From sequence record PX393110.1: a stretch of 64,000 nt of DNA. One strand, 5' to 3'. The notes beneath the pieces are model-generated. The model was given only the letters and a program-made list of their open reading frames with translations. It was not told the origin of the DNA and made no database searches. Position 1 is the first letter of the stretch. Each line of letters begins with the position of its first letter. Made by a program: the position numbers and the translations under genes. The DNA is from a phage. This document shows positions 43,602 through 62,706 of this stretch, piece by piece.

Positions 43602-44225
43602 TTAGAAACGATCGCGACCTATGATTGGTGCGACTGGTTTAAAGTCAGTCTGGTCGTAACCTTTGTAAAGGTCGTAGCCACCACCAGCAACCTCAGTAAA
43701 GTAAATCTGACCGATGCGCATGTTAGAACGCAGTCGGATAGTGTTAGGGCTTAGGTTAACAATCTCTAGAGTAAATGCTCCCTTGAATCCAAAGTCCCCG
43801 AAACCTGCACTGACATGGCTCAGTATTCCCAGACGACCCATAGTGCTGCGACCGTCGTAATGCTGACAGAATGCCACACCACGGTCTACAGTGCTGTTAC
43901 GGTATCGTGGGTCATAATGCTCGAACCACTTCTCAGGCAACATGGTAGTACAGTCGATACGTTCAGATGCTGAGCCTAAGATGAACTCCCCAGGTTTAAG
44001 ATCGTAGTATAGTGCCTCTACCTCGCGATACTCCGGAAGAGTACATGGTTTATAGGGATCTACTACATGGCCATCAGGCATCTTTTGAGGAACCAGGAAG
44101 AACGGAGCTAAGCGTACATCTACACTATTCTGTCCGATTCGTGGTTCCTGATTGTCCAGATAACTGTGATAGGTCCATAATCCTTGAGTAATTGCCTGCT
44201 CAATATAAGATTTACCAAGGATCAT
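43602..44225 (-). CDS. dCTP deaminase-like protein (dUTPase superfamily)
   Basis: 207 aa; size and motif layout of Dcd family. Confidence 0.55.
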   Translation of the reverse strand: MILGKSYIEQAITQGLWTYHSYLDNQEPRIGQNSVDVRLAPFFLVPQKMPDGHVVDPYKPCTLPEYREVEALYYDLKPGEFILGSASERIDCTTMLPEKWFEHYDPRYRNSTVDRGVAFCQHYDGRSTMGRLGILSHVSAGFGDFGFKGAFTLEIVNLSPNTIRLRSNMRIGQIYFTEVAGGGYDLYKGYDQTDFKPVAPIIGRDRF

Positions 44226-44427
44226 TACGGATGCTCCAGCATGTTCTTAACAGATTCTTCATCTGTAGCTTCTACAGTAGCATTATTATTATTATTATTA
44301 TTATTATTCTTGAATGTGCCCCAGATATCATCAGACACGATCATAGTCTTGGGAGCTAAGTGCTCCGAACGAATAACCGTAATCTGGTTACGATTAAGAT
44401 CCTTAGTTAGTTGCTCAATATCCATCA
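44225..44427 (-). CDS. small protein with poly-Asn tract
   Basis: ATG at 44425-44427 with GAGGA RBS; contains 9 consecutive Asn from (ATT)9. Confidence 0.4.
44282..44308. repeat. (ATT)9 trinucleotide microsatellite
   Basis: 27 nt perfect ATT repeat read directly. Confidence 0.95.
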
Positions 44428-44455
44428 TATTCCTCGGTTCTATGGTAGAATAACA

Positions 44456-44479
44456 TTGACCTCTCCGCAAAGAGGTCAA
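44456..44479 (-). terminator. hairpin downstream of dUTPase gene
   Basis: 9-bp stem TTGACCTCT/AGAGGTCAA; U-tract weak. Confidence 0.35.
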
Positions 44480-44510
44480 TAGTAATTACCGTAGTCTAAC
44501 TACCCCAGGA

Positions 44511-44981
44511 TTACTTAATCCCGGAATGGCCAAACCCACCGTCGCCACGTTCAGAAACATCAGAGAATTTATCCACAAGCTGGAGCTCTGGATGGATAAC
44601 GGGAAGAAACACCATTTGAGCGATACGGTCGCCGTGGTTAATAACGAAAGATTCGTTACTACGGTTCCACACAGACACCATCAGTTCTCCTTGATAGCCG
44701 GAGTCGATAAGACCAACCAAGTTACCCAGTACGATGCCATTTTTATGGCCGAGGCCGCTGCGGGGAAGAATCACAGAAGCGATGTTCGGATCGCCGATGT
44801 TGATCGCTAGACCGGTAGGGACCAGGATAGTTTCGCCAGGATTTACAGCGATTTTATCGATTTCGTCAGTCTTAATCATCGCACGAAGATCAAGACCAGC
44901 ATCACCAGCTTTAGCGTATTTCGGTAACTCCAGAGAGTCGTCCCAGTTAATAGTTTTCTTTACTTGAACTACGGTCATCAT
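44511..44981 (-). CDS. dut: dUTP diphosphatase
   Basis: 156 aa; [39 protein letters not shown] motifs of trimeric dUTPases. Confidence 0.85.
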
Positions 44982-45358
44982 GATGCCCTTTTGTACTGTT
45001 TAATGAATGCTGCGCAGATGCTGGTGAAGAGGTGATCTTTGACTCGATGCTCTTCCGGCAACCGTGAATATGGAACCATACACGGGTGCGTCTTAGCTGC
45101 GAGATCTTTGATTTCTCCATACTTCCAGCCCTGCTCCTTTTTAGTTTTAACCCAGAATTCATGGGACTCTTCTGGGCTGATACGGTTATTGTGTAAGCAG
45201 TTATACGCTCCATCAATAGCCGACTGTTTTATTTCATCGGATGTTGCTTCCCAGCTTAATTGGGTGAAGTCTCCGATAGAATGGCAGTATGCACGATTAG
45301 CTTCGTGACACACCTTAGCCACCATCAATACGATTTCTTCTCGGGTCATATGAGACAT
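44978..45358 (-). CDS. RyR-domain protein
   Basis: [20 protein letters not shown]...[20 protein letters not shown] resembles RyR repeat. Confidence 0.5.
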
Positions 45359-45602: not shown

Positions 45603-45634
45603 TTTAACAGCCTTTGGAGGCTACGAAAGAGCGG
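45603..45634 (-). promoter_or_regulatory. conserved promoter-like motif
   Basis: TTTAACAGCCTTTGGAGGCTACGAAAGAGCGG, about 20 nt upstream of start at 45582. Confidence 0.5.
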
Positions 45635-45944
45635 AATCTTCGTCAGGTAATGAATTAACGAAGTCAGCTATAACTTGAGCATGACATGGTAACGGTAAGC
45701 AGGAGCACCCTAAAGTCTTACCCTTAAGAGTCCGTAAGTAGGAGATGCTTATGTGGCCATCTTTTACTTGCTGGTGGAACCATAGTCTGTATTTCGCGAT
45801 GGCTAATGTTCGGGAACCTACGTTAATAGCGTTAGGTAAATCTTTATGGCTCCACTTATTCCCGAATATAGTACCTCTCCCAACATATAAATCGTAGTTA
45901 GGATTGGTACGTATATTAACCACCCGACAAAGCTTACTCTCCAT
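45621..45944 (-). CDS. DUF4326-like protein
   Basis: YVGRG...GNKW...GKTLGCSCLPLPCHAQV layout recalled from DUF4326. Confidence 0.5.
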   Translation of the reverse strand: MESKLCRVVNIRTNPNYDLYVGRGTIFGNKWSHKDLPNAINVGSRTLAIAKYRLWFHQQVKDGHISISYLRTLKGKTLGCSCLPLPCHAQVIADFVNSLPDEDSALS

Positions 45945-46647
45945 CTTCCACAGAGTTACCCTGCATAGCAATCATGGTATTCACCTCGTGCTCCAGATCC
46001 TGTAACTCTTTTACACGATTGATGGTGCGAACCCAAGTCTTAGCTTCCAGCATCGCATCGAACAATGCATGGTGATCAGACATAGACTCGTGCTGGCTAC
46101 TCAGTTCTTCTTTAATCATGCGACGATCATCGAATGAGATCAGCTGCAGACTAGCCAGAGTGCGGTAATCTCGATTCATCCAGTGTAGGAACGGGGTCTT
46201 ACGTCCTTTAGCCTTAAAGTACCAATCCAGGAATCCCTGGTCGAACTCTGGTGCGTTACCGATGAAGTTCAACATCTGGCAACCAGGATCCTGTAGTACC
46301 TTAGCTACGTACTCTTCGATGATATCCAGAGCTTCGTCAACAGATACTGGATTAGCATATGCAGCATCACGGACGGGTTTCGGGAGAGTGTTGAGCCATT
46401 CAACTACGTTAGGGTCAGACTTCATACCCAGAGCCAGCGACTCTTCTCGATCAATAGTGAAGTAGACGTGGGAGTAGTGATCAGGACCAACCGTCACCAT
46501 ACCTACAGATAGAACTACCCCAGGCTCTTTAAAATCGAGATACTCGGTCTCGATGTCAATTGCGCAGTGGTAGGAGTCGTGATATGACAGGAATCGGTTA
46601 AACAGTTTATTCGGAGCCAGATGGTGTGGCATCATCTTAGTAGACAT
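45934..46647 (-). CDS. 3'-5' exonuclease, DEDDh (DnaQ/RNase T-like)
   Basis: AIDIETE (Exo I), FDQGFL (Exo II), HHALFDA (Exo III) motifs. Confidence 0.7.
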   Translation of the reverse strand: MSTKMMPHHLAPNKLFNRFLSYHDSYHCAIDIETEYLDFKEPGVVLSVGMVTVGPDHYSHVYFTIDREESLALGMKSDPNVVEWLNTLPKPVRDAAYANPVSVDEALDIIEEYVAKVLQDPGCQMLNFIGNAPEFDQGFLDWYFKAKGRKTPFLHWMNRDYRTLASLQLISFDDRRMIKEELSSQHESMSDHHALFDAMLEAKTWVRTINRVKELQDLEHEVNTMIAMQGNSVEDGE

Positions 46648-46711: not shown

Positions 46712-47065
46712 TTAATCCTTATCCACAGTATACCCTAGACTGGTTAATAATGTATCTACTTCAACGGCATCATATACTGGAGATGCCTTACCTATTGTGA
46801 TATGATCTGTGTAATGAATTTTAGGGGTAGTTACTTTACGCTCTCTACCCGATAGGAATTTTACTGCATCCTCAACATTACTATTATGATCACCAGTCCA
46901 GCCATCATCAATAGCCATCTGAATAATACGATGATGCATAGCTCGGTTTTCAGCATTCTCTACTCTAGCCTTACTCAGATTAGCCTTAGTAGTGTCTAAT
47001 TCCTGTCGTACTGAGTTATATCGATCTTCCCAGCGTCCGTCATGAATCCCAGTATCTTCAGCCAT
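46712..47065 (-). CDS. hypothetical protein
   Basis: internal ATG at 47063-47065; 117 aa. Confidence 0.4.
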   Translation of the reverse strand: MAEDTGIHDGRWEDRYNSVRQELDTTKANLSKARVENAENRAMHHRIIQMAIDDGWTGDHNSNVEDAVKFLSGRERKVTTPKIHYTDHITIGKASPVYDAVEVDTLLTSLGYTVDKD

Positions 47066-47297
47066 TACGTGCCTTCTTAAGATGCCATTGTGCGACCCAC
47101 CAGAATGTAGTTCCTGGTGCAGAGTAGTTATTGAAGACCCCACCATTACTAAGCAGACTCTTAGCTGCTCGACGATGACCACGACGCTTCTTGCGAGGAT
47201 CGAGTTTAACTGATTGAGCTACTTGCTCATAGGTATCATAACCCACGATCTGCATGCTCCCAACCGCATTAGTTACTGCTTGGATAGGTTGTTCCAT
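47058..47297 (-). CDS. hypothetical basic protein
   Basis: ATG at 47295-47297 with GGGAG RBS; 79 aa. Confidence 0.4.
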   Translation of the reverse strand: MEQPIQAVTNAVGSMQIVGYDTYEQVAQSVKLDPRKKRRGHRRAAKSLLSNGGVFNNYSAPGTTFWWVAQWHLKKARNG

Positions 47298-47312
47298 AAT
47301 TACTCCCAACAT

Positions 47313-47344
47313 TAAATAAAAATAGCGCTCCCTAAAGAGCGCTA
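47313..47344 (-). terminator. rho-independent terminator after NADAR gene
   Basis: 8-bp stem TAGCGCTC/GAGCGCTA followed (minus sense) by TTTTTATTT. Confidence 0.7.
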
Positions 47345-47351
47345 AGATAGG

Positions 47352-48011
47352 TTAGTCTTCTTCGCCCCACTCATCGTCGTAGGCCTGCTTAGGGGTCTTA
47401 CCTTCATCGTAATCATCCCGCCAGGCTTCCGCATCAGCAGCGCTACCGCCACGAGACTGAGCGTATTGGTGCAGCAGTTTATGCCACTCCGCAAACGATC
47501 CTGTCTCCTTGGTCATTTGTTCCATAACTAACTCCTCCCGAAGTTTCATCAGTAATCGTCCGAGCATATTAATACCAGTGAGGACGGACTTGTACTCCTC
47601 ACGAGTCATACCCCAGAAGGAATCTCCGTGGGTATTTCCTTCGACCAGCTCCTTAGGCCAAGTATCGGTCAATTTTTGAGCTAGCTCCCCACCTTTCGCG
47701 AATTTAATCCGGAGTAGGTGTTCCATCACATCTACTCTCTGTTCCTTCCACGATTCAGTAATGGGCAGCTTACGTCCATATCTCTTGGCCTCACCAGGAG
47801 TATGAAGTCTAGCTATGATAAGACGATGGGCTAGTGATGGAGACTTAGATGCTTGATAGGCATGCTCCACACTAGGGTAAGTAAGGGAGGGAAGAGTCTC
47901 GTTCCCGTAAGGATTCTTATCCTCAATAGGAACAGGATAAAAGTTAGATAGGAATCGGTACTCTCCGATAAACTCCAGAATAGAGTTCTTGTCGGTCCAG
48001 ATCCGCATCAT
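47352..48011 (-). CDS. NADAR (YbiA-like) domain protein, putative ADP-ribosyl N-glycosidase
   Basis: YRFLSNFYP, VEHAYQASK, KRYGRK...WKEQRVDVMEHLLRIKF, LVEGN..D.FWG colinear with E. coli YbiA. Confidence 0.75.
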   Translation of the reverse strand: MMRIWTDKNSILEFIGEYRFLSNFYPVPIEDKNPYGNETLPSLTYPSVEHAYQASKSPSLAHRLIIARLHTPGEAKRYGRKLPITESWKEQRVDVMEHLLRIKFAKGGELAQKLTDTWPKELVEGNTHGDSFWGMTREEYKSVLTGINMLGRLLMKLREELVMEQMTKETGSFAEWHKLLHQYAQSRGGSAADAEAWRDDYDEGKTPKQAYDDEWGEED

Positions 48012-48586
48012 CCCTCCATAAATGCACGTTCAATACGGCACACATCACATAGGTCCTTACCCAGCTGACGAGTGCCATGCTTCTCACAATATCCAGTACG
48101 GGATTCACGAGTTAATTCACGTAAGATACGCTTGGCTTCCAGATCAGCACATCCCTTATCCAGCTCAGCACTAAACTGTTCGGCACTCATAATCCCTAAC
48201 GACATCTCCGCCAGCTGTTCCCTATTTAACTGGCTATTTCCTCCGCCAGTTAGGAACCAGTCCTTAACCCACCAGTAACGATAGTGGTGCTTGGGATGAC
48301 GATTATGTATTTCCATACAGTCGTCCAGAGTAAGGAACTTAACCTGCTTATCTTTCCAGATGAATGGCTTATCGAACGGTATGTCGTCACGATTATCATA
48401 GCATGCCCACTGAGGAACTGGGCAGCCATCGCCATCTATCATCTGGTAGTGGAACTCTACTTGCATCTGTAGCATTTCTACTCGGGAATAGAATCGCTCG
48501 TGGTAGAAGACTACTACGCTCTTACCATGCTCTGGTACAAAGTCTTCAAGACTCTGCATACTGAAATTAATTGGCATGTTTCTCAC
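48008..48586 (-). CDS. hypothetical protein
   Basis: 192 aa ORF; Cys-rich C-terminus. Confidence 0.45.
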   Translation of the reverse strand: MRNMPINFSMQSLEDFVPEHGKSVVVFYHERFYSRVEMLQMQVEFHYQMIDGDGCPVPQWACYDNRDDIPFDKPFIWKDKQVKFLTLDDCMEIHNRHPKHHYRYWWVKDWFLTGGGNSQLNREQLAEMSLGIMSAEQFSAELDKGCADLEAKRILRELTRESRTGYCEKHGTRQLGKDLCDVCRIERAFMEG

Positions 48587-55896: not shown

Positions 55897-56526
55897 TTAT
55901 TTAGGGATCCATGAATACTTTAAATTCCATGGCCTAGGGGTACCATGGAAACAAACTACTGCAACCCCATTAGGCACCGACCCGTTTCCGGTAGACCTGT
56001 GACAGTAATGCTCCTGGTCAGGACCTACTACTGATACCTTGTAGGAACAGAATTTACCTGGGTAGAGATCTTGTATGCGAGGTACTCCATTAAAGAATGG
56101 GCAGATAAACTCCTGATCACCACCTACAGAGTGATTAGCCATGAATCTATCTGGACTAACTATCCAAGCATTCCAGATGCGCTCAGCTAAGATAGGCTCA
56201 ACACGCATCACGCTACTGTTAACCATCCCAGTATGGTACCAGTCTCGGAGAATAGTTGATTCGTCACAGTTCAGCAGGAATGTGATATCGTCGATAATTG
56301 CTGTATCTAAATCGAAGAACACGAATGGCTCCTGGATAGTGAATAGCTCCATCTTACTCCACCAGCCAGGATAATCATGCTTCATAGGTATCCACTCAAC
56401 TCCTTCGATAGGCTCTTTAGAGATACATGCATATCTTGTACCTTCTGGGAGTTGTCTACCTACCCATTTAACGTGATCTTCTGTGAAGTCCTTACCCTTA
56501 CGAAATACCGTAACCACTAGCGACAT
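55897..56526 (-). CDS. putative glycosyltransferase (DxD-containing)
   Basis: 209 aa; FDLDTAIIDD possible DxD motif; in glycosyltransferase cluster. Confidence 0.4.
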   Translation of the reverse strand: MSLVVTVFRKGKDFTEDHVKWVGRQLPEGTRYACISKEPIEGVEWIPMKHDYPGWWSKMELFTIQEPFVFFDLDTAIIDDITFLLNCDESTILRDWYHTGMVNSSVMRVEPILAERIWNAWIVSPDRFMANHSVGGDQEFICPFFNGVPRIQDLYPGKFCSYKVSVVGPDQEHYCHRSTGNGSVPNGVAVVCFHGTPRPWNLKYSWIPK

Positions 56527-57485
56527 TTAGTCTTCTCCATATGTTTAAATCCCTGGATCATGTTCTTAGCCACGTTATCCCAGGTACAATCTTTAACCTT
56601 ATCAGCAATCTTGGTTCTGTTAAGCTTAAGGAGTATTTCGTCCCAGTTTATCTTAGAGCCAACTATGTGATGCTCCACAGATTCCAGACGATCTTTAGGA
56701 ATAAGCCCTTCCTTAGTTACTATCAGAGCTCCGCACCGAGCCGCTTCCAGGACAGTAAGGCCTAACGACTCCTTATGAGTAACTATGAAGATGTCGCAGC
56801 ATCTGATTAATGCAGCGAACTCCTGACTGCTTACTCCTCCACGACGATACTCCTCAACACTTATATTCTCCTCGTCGATAACGCATAATCCATTATCGGT
56901 AAGAGTGTAAGATACGTGAGGAACCGGAATATGCTTAAGGTTCATCATCATGGTTAGGGAGTAATCGAAGTCCGACAGGTCAAATAGCGGATGGTCTACG
57001 AATATCCTAAGTACACCATCCGACATCTTCTCTGGGTAGAATAGCTTATCATCAGCTGCCCACCCTACCTGCCAGTTATTATCCAGATGCCTTTTCAGAC
57101 GACTCGGATTGTCTAAGTACTTATAGGTATCGTCCCGAAGAGTGAAAGTTACGTCTACCTGTTTACAGTCTAGCATCGAACCATCATAGATATGGGTAAC
57201 TAATCCCTTAAAGTGCTTCTTAAGGTATTCTCCTATTTCTAGAGGAATCTGAGTAAACGGACGTACTCCCACATATAAGATATGATCGCACTTCTCTTCC
57301 CGAGCTATTTCTAATACTTGATCAGCATAGACATGAGGATTAACCGAATCGTGGTACTCTGGCCATAATACTAACTCTACTCCATTAGCCTCCAGAGCGC
57401 CTCGGAGATGATATTTCCACATGGTACTGAAGTTAGTTATCTGATGTGAACTACCAGGACAATTTGCTATATACAGTAACTTCAT
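56517..57485 (-). CDS. GT-B fold glycosyltransferase (GT4-like)
   Basis: 322 aa; ESLGLTVLEAARCGALIV matches the E-x7-E motif. Confidence 0.65.
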   Translation of the reverse strand: MKLLYIANCPGSSHQITNFSTMWKYHLRGALEANGVELVLWPEYHDSVNPHVYADQVLEIAREEKCDHILYVGVRPFTQIPLEIGEYLKKHFKGLVTHIYDGSMLDCKQVDVTFTLRDDTYKYLDNPSRLKRHLDNNWQVGWAADDKLFYPEKMSDGVLRIFVDHPLFDLSDFDYSLTMMMNLKHIPVPHVSYTLTDNGLCVIDEENISVEEYRRGGVSSQEFAALIRCCDIFIVTHKESLGLTVLEAARCGALIVTKEGLIPKDRLESVEHHIVGSKINWDEILLKLNRTKIADKVKDCTWDNVAKNMIQGFKHMEKTKCR

Positions 57486-58086
57486 TCACCCATTCCTCAA
57501 CAGTAGTTTTACGAGTCCCACCAATCCCTGATAGCGACTGTATATTTATCTTTTCTGTAGCCGACTTAATTAAAATAGGAAGATGGCTAAGGTTATTTGG
57601 TACCCCACCAGATACTCTTGGTTCTGGGCTACCATCTACCCCAACCAACAAGAGATCAGTGTGACCCATATGATAAGCTAATCCGATCGCCCCATAAGCG
57701 CTATTCCCGGAACTGATTACATCAGGATCCTCAGATAACCCAGGAACTGCTCGCCATCTCCACAGCCACCATAGAGGAGTACCATAGATAGGCTCCTCCC
57801 CACGATGTTCGTCCCGCTTAAGTAAGTGTGCTTTATAACCAGAATATAGATGCATATCTGCTTCGTCCACAGCAAGGTAATAACGAGTACCCATCCTAGG
57901 ATTCTGGATACGGCATAGATTAGCTTGGCTAGGATCCAGAGTAAAGAAGTAATTAGCTCTGGGTAACCACTCTATGGCACCATTAACCGCAAATATCGGT
58001 ATCTCATGTGGAGGAGTGAATCCTCTTGCCGATGGTCCATCTGCTACAATTATGGCAGGTCTTCTATACTTAGCCTCTCGAAGCAT
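57451..58086 (-). CDS. CstII/Maf-like (GT42/DUF115 superfamily) putative glycosyltransferase
   Basis: ADGPSA ... SSGNSAYGAIGLAYHMG ... LLVGVDGS layout; paralog of next gene. Confidence 0.45.
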   Translation of the reverse strand: MLREAKYRRPAIIVADGPSARGFTPPHEIPIFAVNGAIEWLPRANYFFTLDPSQANLCRIQNPRMGTRYYLAVDEADMHLYSGYKAHLLKRDEHRGEEPIYGTPLWWLWRWRAVPGLSEDPDVISSGNSAYGAIGLAYHMGHTDLLLVGVDGSPEPRVSGGVPNNLSHLPILIKSATEKINIQSLSGIGGTRKTTVEEWVNEVTVYSKLSW

Positions 58087-58586
58087 GTTATTTTAGTCCT
58101 TCTGGTACAATTGATTATAGTAATACTATCTGGAAGGTATCTCTGGACCAAGTAATAGTCCTCAATCCATTTAGCAACTGTTTCAAGATCTGGATTAGTT
58201 AACCCACCAGTATGATCTCCATGGAAATGGCTACCATCTGAAATATCACAGTCATAGCCGAGAAGTACTATCTCTTTAGGAGCAAATACGCTGGCCAAGA
58301 AGATAGCTTGAGCGCCCGAGCTATAACAACTATTCAAGTAGAAGAACTGTTTTACATCTGGGTGATTCTCTACAGGAAGATGGCTGTACTTAGAGCATGT
58401 GCTTGGGACATTATTATAATTATGCTCCCACCAGATAGGATCGAATCCATAAACTATATTGGGAGGTCTGGATGAGAACATGGCGTTATTAGCGCTAATA
58501 ACCAAGTCGGACTTACTAGCAAGTAGTAAATAATCCTCCTCGGTTAGAGAAGGACCGCTAGCTACACACATTATTCTCTTTATCAT
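58050..58586 (-). CDS. CstII/Maf-like (GT42/DUF115 superfamily) putative glycosyltransferase
   Basis: ASGPSLTEEDY ... YSSGAQAIFLASVF ... LLGYDCD layout resembles CstII-type sialyltransferase. Confidence 0.5.
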   Translation of the reverse strand: MIKRIMCVASGPSLTEEDYLLLASKSDLVISANNAMFSSRPPNIVYGFDPIWWEHNYNNVPSTCSKYSHLPVENHPDVKQFFYLNSCYSSGAQAIFLASVFAPKEIVLLGYDCDISDGSHFHGDHTGGLTNPDLETVAKWIEDYYLVQRYLPDSITIINCTRRTKITCFERLSIEDLP

Positions 58587-59290
58587 AAGTACTGTCTAAC
58601 CTCTGGGCTAAGGACCGTATCCATAATAGCTGAAGTGCATTCCCCATCAACCCAGTCACCAAGTACTTCAGTAAGTGCTGAGTTAATTGCGGTAGTCATG
58701 TACTCTTTAAGGAGTAATGCCTCTTCGTTAATGTAGTCGGTTACGTCCTTAACGAAAGTAGCTACCGACTCAAAAGCACCATCCAGAGTATCCTTAAGTT
58801 CCTGAGCCTTAACCAGAAGATCTTCGGTATCGTCCAGGCCCAGGAACTCCTCAATGCTGTTAGCTGCTTCCCCAACGGCCTCTGTGACTGTATTCAGTGC
58901 TCGTTGGCCAATACCACCCACGATACCCATCACAGAGTTAAATGGGGTACATGCCGTAGCTACACCGAATTTATCCATGGCTGCTGCATAGTTCTTGGCT
59001 ATGTTAATTCTGGAGTACATGTTCTGTACAGATTCATCACCGTAGGCAACTAGCGTAGAGATGCTGGATAAGTTACCCTCCATAGCTATCTGGGCTGCGT
59101 TGATATAGGCTGGATCTATACCGGCCTTATTAAGAGCTTCTGCCTTAAGTGCCGAAGGATTCTGTAGCTGGCTTAATCCGCTAACTACAGACTGGGTTTT
59201 CTCACCAGCTACAGCGCCTACATCGCTGAGTGGGTTAATAGTACCACGGCCAGCTTGCAGAACCTGGAATACTTTATTCTTATCAACCAT
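58583..59290 (-). CDS. hypothetical protein
   Basis: 235 aa; GGAG RBS; immediately downstream of terminator. Confidence 0.5.
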   Translation of the reverse strand: MVDKNKVFQVLQAGRGTINPLSDVGAVAGEKTQSVVSGLSQLQNPSALKAEALNKAGIDPAYINAAQIAMEGNLSSISTLVAYGDESVQNMYSRINIAKNYAAAMDKFGVATACTPFNSVMGIVGGIGQRALNTVTEAVGEAANSIEEFLGLDDTEDLLVKAQELKDTLDGAFESVATFVKDVTDYINEEALLLKEYMTTAINSALTEVLGDWVDGECTSAIMDTVLSPEVRQYL

Positions 59291-59670: not shown

Positions 59671-59925
59671 TCACTGGTTCAGAACTGCCACGATCTTTTC
59701 TGCCACCTGCTCCAGAGTATCGTCGCTATCATAGTCGAAGTCTGGAATACTGTCTTCCATACCCAGTTCATCTTCAACACGCATGATGATCTCCACTTCA
59801 TCCAGAGAATCTGCACCTAACTGCTCACCGGTAGTAGTTTCAGTTACTTCCAGAATATCAACCATCATGATGTCAGCTACTGCAGATCGCAGTGCATCTT
59901 TAACCTGTTCCAAAGTTACAGACAT
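59671..59925 (-). CDS. acyl carrier protein homolog
   Basis: 84 aa acidic; LGADSLDEVEIIMRVEDELG matches ACP phosphopantetheine-attachment motif; start shares one nt with ligase stop. Confidence 0.75.
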   Translation of the reverse strand: MSVTLEQVKDALRSAVADIMMVDILEVTETTTGEQLGADSLDEVEIIMRVEDELGMEDSIPDFDYDSDDTLEQVAEKIVAVLNQ

Positions 59926-61868
59926 TATTCAGCTCCAATGATTTTACGGAATTGATCTTCGGTAACGATCTTGGTACCCTTAGCTTCGGCAGCCTTAAAC
60001 TTACTGGACTGACTTGGTTTATCGCATACCAGATATTCTGCGTCGCCGATACCGACTTCGACTACGCCATATTTGATCCAGGAGTTAACCAGTTCGCTAC
60101 GAGGCTTACTAAGCTTACCAGTTAAGCAGATCTTGAACTTTCCTTCCGGAAGCGGTTCCTCTACCTTAGAGGCCACCCAGTTCAGAGGAAGATTCAGCAC
60201 CTTCAGGATTACTTCCTGATTCTCTACAATCTTCTTAGCTACGGAACCCATGCATGCATCATAGATTGCCTTACAGATTTTGTAGTCCTCGGTATTGACC
60301 TGGATACCGTCATTAACCATGTCGTGGAAGCTATTGTTACGCAATACACGAATCATCTGGTCGCGAGTCACCGCAGTGGCAATACGCACTCCTGTTGCAT
60401 AACCAAGGCCATCCGTCCAGGTACAGGTCAGCATGTGGTCCATAGAGATAGGACGATCCTTCATATTGAAGAAGGACTGACGAGTAAGCTGGAGAGGGCC
60501 ATCGTACATCTCTACCATACTGAATACTGGATGAGATGGACCAGTCTCGATGATATCGTTCAACATGGCAACATCATCTAGTTTAGCCTGCTCGGCAAAC
60601 TTGTTGATATTCGTCCCACCGAGACCCTTAGGAGCGAAGTCACGGATTATCGTACGAATAACCATCGGGTCTAACTTAGTCTTGATGCGAATATGCACGC
60701 CATCCCAGAAAGTACGTACCCCATCGACGAATTCAGGAATTACCGCAGTGACGGGTTCCACGACTTCTTCGATATGAGGAATTACCTCGTTACGGCGACT
60801 GATCTTGATCTTAGCACCAGGTCCGATACCAGCACTCTTGATGTACTCAGCATTCCATCCGGATGCATAAGTTACATTAACTCCACTCATGTCTACCGTC
60901 TCGAACTCAACAGTAGGCACGACTCGGCCGTAACCACTAACTACCCAGTGTACCTTAACCACGGTAGTGTCATAGAATGCTGATTGGTACTTGATCTTAT
61001 AGTGGACAGTATTCTTGCCCAGCATATTCTCATCCCAGTCAACATTCAGAGATCCCAGAACTACGCCATCCAACAGGTAGTTGCAGACCGGATCTTCGCG
61101 GAACTTAGATGGTGGGTTAGCCACTAGCCAAGTATTGACATAACCAGCAGGAAGAACGAAGTACTTAACTACTTTGAACCCAGCCTTACTTAAACATAGT
61201 AGCAGCTGGTTGTAGTCATCCATCCATGTCTCGTGATCCACATCCTCGTAGAATGCAGTTACCGAATATGCAACCACATCCAGCAGTTCCATTAATGCAG
61301 GATCACTGTATTTAGCCAGAGCAATACCAGAAGCAGCATTACGCTGGTTACTGTACTCGTGGCTGATCCGCTCGAACTTATCATCGGGAATAACGATTTC
61401 GCAGCGGACTTCTTTAATACCTTTAGGAACCTGGCGAGGAAACTCGGCACACTCCAGACTCTTCGTGATGTCCAGACCAGTGACGCCGTCGTGACGAGTT
61501 AAGCCACGGACGAAGTTACCGTCGTAGTCGTAATACAGAACTACCGAGATGCCGTCCAGTTTAGCCGAAGCGACGAATCCCTTAACTTCTTCGTGACCAT
61601 GGAGGAAGTTAAATCCCTCTTCCACAGCACCGATCTTAACCTGGTCAAGACCACCCACGAATGAACCATGTGGGCACTTAGCCAGATGTTCAGCAGCTTC
61701 GGTTACTCCCCAGCCTGGGGTAGTGAGGAGTGGGTTAGTAGGATCCAGCTCAGCTAATTTCTCGGTAAGAGCATCGAACTCTTCGTCCGTAATAATGGGC
61801 TGGTCACCATTATAATATGCATTAGCCGCATTCTTAATTTGCTCTATCAGAGCAGCGACTTTTTCCAT
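59925..61868 (-). CDS. ligA: NAD-dependent DNA ligase
   Basis: 647 aa; KLDG adenylation motif in context colinear with E. coli LigA; C-terminal BRCT-like region. Confidence 0.85.
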   Translation of the reverse strand: MEKVAALIEQIKNAANAYYNGDQPIITDEEFDALTEKLAELDPTNPLLTTPGWGVTEAAEHLAKCPHGSFVGGLDQVKIGAVEEGFNFLHGHEEVKGFVASAKLDGISVVLYYDYDGNFVRGLTRHDGVTGLDITKSLECAEFPRQVPKGIKEVRCEIVIPDDKFERISHEYSNQRNAASGIALAKYSDPALMELLDVVAYSVTAFYEDVDHETWMDDYNQLLLCLSKAGFKVVKYFVLPAGYVNTWLVANPPSKFREDPVCNYLLDGVVLGSLNVDWDENMLGKNTVHYKIKYQSAFYDTTVVKVHWVVSGYGRVVPTVEFETVDMSGVNVTYASGWNAEYIKSAGIGPGAKIKISRRNEVIPHIEEVVEPVTAVIPEFVDGVRTFWDGVHIRIKTKLDPMVIRTIIRDFAPKGLGGTNINKFAEQAKLDDVAMLNDIIETGPSHPVFSMVEMYDGPLQLTRQSFFNMKDRPISMDHMLTCTWTDGLGYATGVRIATAVTRDQMIRVLRNNSFHDMVNDGIQVNTEDYKICKAIYDACMGSVAKKIVENQEVILKVLNLPLNWVASKVEEPLPEGKFKICLTGKLSKPRSELVNSWIKYGVVEVGIGDAEYLVCDKPSQSSKFKAAEAKGTKIVTEDQFRKIIGAE

Positions 61869-61898
61869 CTTTGTTATTCCTTACGGTTGGATTGACAC

Positions 61899-61930
61899 TT
61901 TAACAGCCTTTTAGCACCCTAAAAGAGCGG
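61899..61930 (-). promoter_or_regulatory. conserved promoter-like motif
   Basis: TTTAACAGCCTTTTAGCACCCTAAAAGAGCGG, 30 nt upstream of ligase start. Confidence 0.5.
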
Positions 61931-61932
61931 AA

Positions 61933-62706
61933 TTAGCGATTCTCAGGTTCTACGTATTCCAGACCAAGCAGCTGATACAGTTCTTCCTCAGAGGAATTAG
62001 TATCCACACGTTCACCGGTCTCTACATTAAACAGGCCATACTCATTAAGAGTCATGCCCATACGCTTAGCCACCGAACGCATGTGTACGTTATTCTGCAT
62101 TGATCCTGTGGAGTGAAGTAAGCACGCGTTCCAGGATTCTTCTGGACAGATCTTGATATCAAATTCCATACCAGTATTAGTATGGACGAATCGGATCTTT
62201 TTATCCTTACCATACAGTTCCTCCATACCGGTAAGACGGAAAGCATGGCGAACTATTTCTGGAGGGAAGGTAGTAAGCAGGTCTACGTCGCGAATCCACA
62301 TCTTACCACGACGTACCGAACCAGCTGTAGAGATACGACCAGAGCTACCCTCGGCAAGACTCAGTTTGGTCACTTCCGTTAGGTAGGACTCAATGATATC
62401 CTTAACCTCAGTGGAGTAAGCAACACGACCTTCTGGGACTTTAGACATAAGTTCAATGAACTTAGGAGTCATGGTGCCATACTTAGCGAAGGCTTCTAAC
62501 TCGCTAGCAATCCCAGCACCTATCCATGGGATTGTAGTGAAGTTCATCTGGGAAGTTACACCATACGGGTAATCATCCAAGGAACGGGCTGCACGATCAT
62601 ACGCCCTAACATGCCACACGGAATCACCATGGGCTTTCTTAAGCTCGGCTATTTGGCGAAGGTGGCGAACAGCATCAATACGGAAGGTCATCCTAACAGG
62701 CTCCAA
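61933..62706 (-). CDS. DNA polymerase X family (Pol beta-like) nucleotidyltransferase
   Basis: GSVRRGKMWIRDVDLL nucleotidyltransferase motif; C-terminal region colinear with Pol beta thumb. Confidence 0.7.
   Translation of the reverse strand: MEPVRMTFRIDAVRHLRQIAELKKAHGDSVWHVRAYDRAARSLDDYPYGVTSQMNFTTIPWIGAGIASELEAFAKYGTMTPKFIELMSKVPEGRVAYSTEVKDIIESYLTEVTKLSLAEGSSGRISTAGSVRRGKMWIRDVDLLTTFPPEIVRHAFRLTGMEELYGKDKKIRFVHTNTGMEFDIKICPEESWNACLLHSTGSMQNNVHMRSVAKRMGMTLNEYGLFNVETGERVDTNSSEEELYQLLGLEYVEPENR

Follow-up and report, generated by a model that had tools for sequence, protein, structure and literature searches.

Phage-encoded proteins of the NADAR family have recently been characterised as enzymes that act against DarTG1. 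Johannesman et al. 2025 (PMC11825919) named the phage NADARs AdfN and reported that they reverse the guanine ADP-ribosylation of DNA by DarT1: T4 gp30.3, AdfN-Bas32 (from a T5-like phage) and AdfN-Bas60 strip the ADP-ribose (ADPr) written by DarT1 from DNA, and phage growth is restored on DarTG1 but not on DarTG2 hosts. AdfN-Bas32 neutralises DarT1, and with it the phages RB69, T5 and Bas25 are rescued on DarTG1 hosts; it is sufficient alone, without other phage proteins (PMC11825919). Cihlova et al. 2024 (PMC11125620) showed that all four NADAR subtypes associated with E. coli hydrolyse guanine-ADPr (G-ADPr) in vitro and that none hydrolyses thymidine-ADPr; the phage and bacterial NADARs tested are inactive on the thymidine-ADPr of DarT2 and give no rescue from DarTG2 (PMC11825919, PMC11125620). 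Here we describe a NADAR gene carried by a phage DNA of 64,000 nucleotides (record PX393110.1), the whole of which is hereafter called the window. The gene is a complete open reading frame (ORF) for 219 residues at 47352-48011, on the minus strand. The idea of a phage NADAR directed against DarTG1 was already published in 2024-2025 and is not new; the only new feature is the architecture, in which NADAR is fused to a widespread small acidic three-helix domain for which neither Pfam nor NCBIfam gives a match and no function is annotated.

The validated AdfN proteins were taken from their own genomes and compared with the window protein by sequence. AdfN-Bas32 is the closest experimentally characterised relative, with 44% identity over residues 11-161 (E 2e-30, 98.6 bits), ahead of E. 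coli YbiA, which is colinear with the window protein (BLASTP, residues 8-165 against 13-160, 34% identity, E 1e-19, 70.5 bits). AdfN-Bas60 shares 22% identity (E 0.06), and the match to AdfN-T4 is not significant. The Pfam profile PF08719 (NADAR) matches residues 17-161 with 94.9 bits against a cut-off of 35.1 (E 7.9e-27), covering profile positions 9-162 of 163, and phrog_1017 matches residues 8-169 (E 4.9e-38). A phmmer search of the PDB sequences returned only E. coli YbiA (2b3w, E 2e-14) and a Phytophthora NADAR (8bau, E 1.7e-10). The AlphaFold2 model, built with 67 homologues, is confident in the NADAR part, where the predicted local distance difference test score (pLDDT) is mostly >85, and Foldseek aligned it with the same two PDB entries (2b3w, E 3.5e-8, template modelling score 0.72 on the target; 8bau, E 9e-7), no other structure in the PDB falling below E 9. 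The assignment to the NADAR family made in the original prediction is secure, and the model points to a YbiA-like alpha+beta fold.

The residues that contact ADP-ribose and those needed for guanine-ADPr hydrolysis have been listed by Schuller et al. 2023 (PMC11543638). Their alignment, a check that the original prediction had left to be made, gives every listed residue a counterpart in the window protein, and most of these are invariant or nearly so among the homologues: PnNADAR E43, K50, K75, R79, W89, R93, E125, D130 and W133 correspond respectively to E49, K56, K76, R80, W88, R92, E124, D130 and W133. The catalytic Glu and Lys, E43 and K50 in PnNADAR and E88 and K95 in the protein of E. coli C7 (PMC11543638), are E49 (47865-47867) and K56 (47844-47846), both invariant or nearly invariant. 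Furthermore, E124 (47640-47642), in the motif LVEGN, is invariant among the 67 homologues. The position of PnNADAR E125 differs by subfamily, with Glu in the YbiA type, Asp in the BC4488/DarG1 type and His in the T4 type (sensu de Souza and Aravind; PMC11543638), and the Glu at position 124 therefore places the window protein in the YbiA-type subfamily.

AdfN-Bas32 (bas32_0066, QXV80247.1; T5-like phages Bas32/Bas33) and the window protein are both phage-encoded orphan NADARs with no adjacent toxin, and they share the catalytic residues, the Glu of the VEGN/IEGN motif and the absence of the DarG1 N-terminal extension. They differ in that AdfN-Bas32 is a single-domain protein of 149 residues from the Demerecviridae, the activity of which has been shown, whereas the window protein belongs to an orphan myovirus, adds a 54-residue acidic three-helix domain and has a predicted activity. 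Domain scans of the window ORFs found no ADP-ribosyltransferase (ART) or DarT domain in the ORFs neighbouring the NADAR gene, which makes it, like AdfN, an orphan hydrolase. YbiA (PDB 2B3W), a riboflavin-intermediate N-glycosidase that is active on G-ADPr in vitro, has the fold, the colinearity and the YbiA-type catalytic Glu in common with the window protein, but it is chromosomal, in the LexA-controlled dinG-ybiB region, has no C-terminal module and does not rescue from DarT1. AdfN-T4 (gp30.3) and AdfN-Bas60 are likewise phage NADARs shown to counter DarTG1, although both are remote in sequence, and the T4 type, which has His for Glu, is fully active only with another T-even factor. DarG1, the DarT1-associated antitoxin (E. 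coli C7, Geobacter lovleyi), belongs to the same superfamily and shares the Glu/Lys catalytic pair and a conserved Lys (C7 K115, window K76). Unlike the window protein, it sits by darT1, carries, before its YbiA-like core, a basic N-terminal extension proposed to bind single-stranded DNA (ssDNA), and has Asp (C7 D171) in place of Glu; the window gene has neither the darT1 neighbour nor the extension. PADLOC gave only a weak match, to a candidate-system NADAR, and the possibility that the gene is a component of a defence system was rejected.

We propose that the gene product would be an active NADAR-family ADP-ribosyl-nucleobase N-glycohydrolase of a lytic E. coli myovirus, from the rare lineage of phages IME392 and EP_H11. 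After infection, the enzyme would cleave the ribose-N2-guanine bond set on phage ssDNA by DarT1-type (or pierisin/ScARP-like) ARTs, and the phage DNA so cleared would let replication proceed, the enzyme acting on the mark and not on the toxin. Hydrolysis of base-linked ADP-ribose is the activity predicted by the alignments, while the substrate and the counter-defence role are argued from homology. Such an AdfN-like mechanism is favoured, with moderate confidence, mainly because the closest characterised relative is a proven, self-sufficient anti-DarTG1 factor. DarTG1 occurs in E. coli (PMC11125620), the host of the window phage's lineage, and by analogy with the assayed NADARs the enzyme would counter DarTG1 or other ARTs directed at guanine, and not DarTG2. 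Thus the counter-defence function suggested in the original prediction is the best-supported one, given the 44% identity to AdfN-Bas32, although it had been proposed for DarTG in general and is now narrowed to DarTG1. As a phage-encoded orphan NADAR related in sequence to a validated AdfN, the window protein would in its enzyme half be one more, rather ordinary, member of the AdfN class, which it extends to a sparsely sampled lineage of E. coli myoviruses; the functional definition of AdfN, to neutralise DarT1 and restore replication on DarTG1 hosts (PMC11825919), is predicted to apply to it.

The coding sequence divides into two parts:

47526..47990, minus strand: NADAR domain, residues 8-162 (Pfam, PHROG, PDB sequence matches, alignments, AlphaFold2 and Foldseek)
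47355..47516, minus strand: C-terminal module, residues 166-219 (phrog_519, alignment to stand-alone proteins, AlphaFold2)

The second part had been described as an extra acidic C-terminal tail. Acidic it is, with a net charge of about -8 and an isoelectric point (pI) of 4.4, within a family that is strongly acidic as a whole (pI 4.0-5.4), but it is a folded domain homologous to stand-alone proteins and not a tail. A combined MAFFT alignment of NADARs and module proteins was misaligned, and each part was given a model of its own. That of the module, from an alignment of 28 sequences, is a predicted three-helix bundle (AlphaFold2, pLDDT 91.7) with helices at residues 173-186, 194-202 and 207-215. 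Moreover, phrog_519 matches residues 157-219 (E 1.6e-19), and residues 166-219 align end to end with stand-alone (pro)phage proteins of about 55 residues, at 54-66% identity and with 25 invariant columns across five sequences. The family motif reads F-x-EWH..L...A...GGSAADAxAWRxDYxxGKTPxxAxxDEWG, and M166 of the window protein is aligned to the start Met of ORF8 of Morganella phage Mecenats66. The phrog_519-type proteins (WP_000753060.1, Det7 gp16, Mecenats66 ORF8) share with the module this invariant motif and similarity over their whole length; they differ in being stand-alone proteins of 49-65 residues, while the window module is covalently joined to an enzyme.

A tblastn search of 50,697 phage records gave hundreds of matches to the NADAR part only and a separate set to residues ~150-219 only, the latter in Ackermannviridae (Det7, SE14), Mecenats66 and lambdoid phages, where the annotated genes beneath the matches encode proteins of 53-64 residues. 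One such match, in 813R8, seemed to extend upstream (query residues 135-165) and was discarded as a spurious K-rich stretch with stop codons. A word-indexed search with the 74 C-terminal residues gave no matches, owing to the word index; the family was recovered by exhaustive and profile searches. The exhaustive phmmer search, over 1.84 billion representatives, found 41 module clusters, almost all of 48-85 residues, and the module profile found 39 proteins in a collection of 5.8 billion. With three exceptions these are 'hypothetical' or 'prophage' proteins of 49-65 residues without Pfam domains; the exceptions are two longer uncharacterised proteins (99 and 111 residues) and the metagenomic protein P0001, the sole NADAR fusion. 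Scanned against Pfam and NCBIfam, the module and three of its stand-alone homologues gave no match up to E 10. The scans did not bear out the label 'DUF5419' of the Mecenats66 record, and DUF5419 is not mentioned in the literature searched. A comparison with AdfA (T4 gp61.2), the other known anti-DarT1 factor, showed no similarity (hhalign probability 0.2%).

Of 5426 complete E. coli genomes, 1904 (~35%) carry the stand-alone homologue WP_000753060.1. In lambdoid prophages it occupies the nin-like region (L011:3501-3677), with the replication genes on one side and hokD/rusA/Q on the other, and is annotated only as hypothetical. By tying this uncharacterised, widespread small acidic (pro)phage protein to an ADP-ribose-removing enzyme, the fusion offers the first concrete hypothesis for the small protein's function. 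Rather than catalysing a reaction, the module would bind a partner, direct localisation or add a second activity against the host. That it is specifically an anti-defence or targeting element, such as a DNA-mimic-like binder of DarT-type ARTs or of an ssDNA-handling protein, is a long shot. If true, the fusion would be the phage counterpart of the two-domain DarG, combining a mark eraser with a toxin- or damage-engaging domain, and by Rosetta-stone logic the stand-alone homologues, in Ackermannviridae and in the prophages of about 35% of complete E. coli genomes, would join the ADP-ribosylation conflict. The likeness to the DarG of DarTG2, a macrodomain hydrolase followed by a C-terminal DarT-binding domain, is an architectural analogy only (an ADPr-removing domain, then a non-catalytic one): the folds and sequences are unrelated, and toxin binding by the window module is conjectural.

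The fusion itself is rare. A full-length tblastn match was found only in Escherichia phage vB_EcoM_IME392 and in EP_H11, two lytic E. coli phages that are 96.7% and 92.8% identical, respectively, to the window over 5 kb and in whose records the NADAR gene is annotated as hypothetical. Among 1,572 NADAR matches from a word-indexed search of the 5.8-billion-protein collection, P0001 alone covers the full query. The fusion is thus lineage-specific, confined to the small phage lineage of the window. Elsewhere the module shows no association with genes for NADAR or other ADPr proteins: 80 stand-alone module loci have no NADAR within 4 kb, and the module is absent from all 55 viral NADAR loci. A general two-gene system of NADAR and module was rejected on this evidence, and it follows that the fusion could be functionally incidental, a point that counts against the function proposed above.

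At the junction of the two parts, the DNA carries the signals of a separate start:

47523..47539, minus strand: internal Shine-Dalgarno (SD) sequence GGGAGGAG at 47532-47539, 6-nucleotide spacer and ATG of M163 at 47523-47525, conserved in the window, IME392 and EP_H11

The arrangement of GGGAGGAG and the M163 ATG is that of a good ribosome-binding site and is kept in the three phages, so that a separate module protein of 57 residues would possibly be made from M163. In the IME392 record (MH719082.1; L001:7548-7550, equivalent to window 47544-47546), codon K156 reads TAA owing to one A-to-T substitution, which is why this phage is annotated with a 154-residue protein. The stop would truncate the final helix of NADAR, with loss of the near-invariant R158, leaving a NADAR of 154/155 residues, and the small ORF behind it would remain translatable on its own. 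Either the allele is real or the stop is an error of sequencing. The split gene parallels RB69, in which adfN is naturally truncated and hypomorphic, and IME392 might be used as a naturally split or hypomorphic form of the gene. The frame is open in the window, in EP_H11 and in P0001. The ratio of nonsynonymous to synonymous divergence (pN/pS) is ~0.05-0.08 across the three phages and ~0.05 in both halves (against EP_H11, 0.021/0.252 in the NADAR part and 0.014/0.278 in the module); both halves are under strong purifying selection. No relative was found that carries NADAR and module as two intact adjacent genes. We infer that the fusion arose by the joining of two adjacent genes, because M166 aligns with the initiator Met of Mecenats66 ORF8, M163 still has its SD and ATG, and the IME392 stop separates the parts again; the small protein may still be made separately.

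These observations bear on whether the fusion matters at all. A stop codon may simply have been lost between two neighbours, with the small protein made mainly from M163 and the 219-residue product being a tolerated by-product, or with the frame split in vivo. The conserved, strong SD and ATG at M163 are what such a history would leave, as are the TAA at codon 156 of IME392, the lack of any nonsynonymous change in the downstream module between the window and IME392, and a module that is stand-alone everywhere else and never near NADAR. Yet the frame has been kept open in three independent sequences (window, EP_H11 and P0001), the GGAGGAG within the SD may merely encode the conserved R-E-E motif of NADAR, and the IME392 stop, which would remove R158, may not be real; the missing relative with two separate intact genes also speaks for the fused form. 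We regard an incidental fusion as doubtful.

Besides the unlinked module, several observations weigh against the AdfN-like function of the enzyme. Although G-ADPr is hydrolysed in vitro by both YbiA and T4 gp30.3, neither of them alone rescued cells from DarT1 (PMC11125620); efficacy in vivo varies by NADAR subtype and is not guaranteed for a protein with the YbiA-type E124. The near-invariant motif GNTWGD, which lies beside the catalytic Glu and the Trp of which is found in >90% of the homologues, has His in the window protein at this position (residue 128, codon 47628-47630), as PnNADAR likewise has. The NADAR core begins at about residue 8 with no N-terminal extension, and the window protein is thus without the basic extension that has been proposed to bind ssDNA in the DarT1-associated NADARs. 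The NCBIfam equivalog for riboflavin-intermediate N-glycosidases, TIGR02464, scores 73.5 bits against a cut-off of 73.7, a borderline value only 0.2 bits short. Finally, a gene for a DUF4326 protein lies downstream on the same strand, in a position that fits the processing of small-molecule ADPr derivatives:

47313..47344, minus strand: intrinsic terminator 8 nucleotides past the stop codon of the NADAR gene, stem-loop UAGCGCUCU-UUAG-GGAGCGCUA then UUUUUAUUU
45621..45971, minus strand: DUF4326 protein gene (Pfam PF14216, E 2.5e-17), about 1.4 kb downstream of the NADAR gene

The main alternative for the enzyme is accordingly that NADAR acts, together with this phosphatase-like protein, on soluble low-molecular-weight ADPr derivatives, for example immune signals made from NAD or ADPr metabolites that are toxic. 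Iyer, Burroughs and Aravind proposed such a role for most phage NADARs (PMC9503650). Their study (Iyer et al. 2022) describes frequent viral fusions of DUF4326 with NADAR, Macro and SLOG domains and predicts that DUF4326 processes phosphates attached to the ribose in derivatives of ADPr. Consistent with this, the NADAR homologue P0009 (291 residues) carries a second Pfam domain, PF22751, with a Cys/His motif that, judged by eye, resembles the DUF4326 protein of the window, and tblastn found DUF4326 homologues near NADAR in two IMG/VR loci (L097 and L126). The latter are, however, only 2 of the 55 viral NADAR loci. All NADARs assayed so far act on base-linked ADPr in nucleic acids, and the 44%-identical AdfN-Bas32 neutralises DarT1 alone. 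Moreover, the terminator stands between the NADAR gene and the DUF4326 gene. Its hairpin (47344-47323), a GC-rich 9-bp stem followed by a T-run, has a predicted energy of -14.1 kcal/mol (z -3.45) and is 100% conserved in the three phages, whereas the coding sequence around it shows a synonymous divergence of ~25%; the claim that the gene has its own terminator is borne out. The next gene downstream has as its start a conserved ATG (47297) preceded by a separate SD (GGGAG), the listed ORF at 47058-47312 beginning at a window-specific ATG (AATG in the window, AACG in both relatives). On balance, a role on soluble ADPr derivatives is unlikely.

A further possibility is that the enzyme reverses the ADP-ribosylation of RNA or of cytidine bases by other ARTs, be they ScARP/pierisin-like enzymes, interbacterial effectors or an RNA-targeting defence. 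NADARs, those of the YbiA type included, do remove ADPr from RNA guanosine and from cytidine, and the enzyme works on the mark whichever enzyme wrote it. No guanine- or cytidine-directed RNA system is known in E. coli phage defence, however, and this explanation overlaps with the AdfN-like function without being exclusive of it; as the principal role we consider it improbable. Very improbable is a housekeeping YbiA-type N-glycosidase that destroys reactive riboflavin-pathway intermediates as a phage auxiliary metabolic gene, since for all the YbiA-subfamily E124, the 34% identity to YbiA, the near miss of TIGR02464 and the label 'ribA/ribD-fused uncharacterized protein' often given to homologues, the equivalog cut-off was missed, no riboflavin genes lie nearby, AdfN-Bas32 is closer than YbiA, metabolite damage control would be of little gain in a short lytic cycle, and YbiA itself hydrolyses G-ADPr too.

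Two start codons are available to the NADAR gene: the first ATG (48011) gives 219 residues and the second (48008) 218. An SD (GGAGGG) lies just 5' of the gene with a spacing that suits the second ATG better, and P0001, which is 99% identical, was called from the second Met. The ATG overlaps the stop of the upstream ORF in an ATGA arrangement. This upstream ORF (48008-48586, minus strand, 192 residues) is translationally coupled to the NADAR gene and has only a sub-threshold match, to DUF5662; its counterpart in EP_H11 is annotated as longer (269 residues). Further downstream in the same gene block, at 44978-45358 (minus strand), is a gene for an RyR-domain protein (PF02026, E 5.8e-13), and a homologue of this protein, 39% identical, is encoded about 4.5 kb from a NADAR gene in an unrelated viral contig (L141:10565-10915).

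The plus strand of the window carries myovirus structural genes, including those for the tail sheath and a gp23-like capsid protein, and the NADAR gene lies within a minus-strand block (~42-63 kb) of small ORFs and nucleotide-metabolism and replication genes. The block includes the following:

minus strand, ~42-63 kb: dCTP-deaminase-like gene, dUTPase, DEDDh exonuclease, glycosyltransferase, NAD-dependent ligase and PolX-like gene

This position is compatible with early or middle expression. By the major capsid protein, the lineage consists of these phages alone, the next relative being Ralstonia phage RP13 at 55% identity. It is very sparsely sampled, with IME392 and EP_H11 as the only relatives in GenBank, and the IMG/VR contigs hold no close relative of the window's NADAR gene. 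The capsid protein also shows a very remote similarity to that of Bacillus phage SP-15. Genes for a dCTP-deaminase-like protein, a dUTPase, a glycosyltransferase and a DUF7217 protein lie at 43602-44981 and 56517-59290 (minus strand); together with the SP-15 similarity, they raise the possibility of DNA-base modification by this phage. At 59925-62706 (minus strand), the gene for the NAD-dependent DNA ligase (647 residues) adjoins that for the PolX-like protein, which has HHH_8 and Pol beta thumb domains, a pair that is uncommon in E. coli phages.

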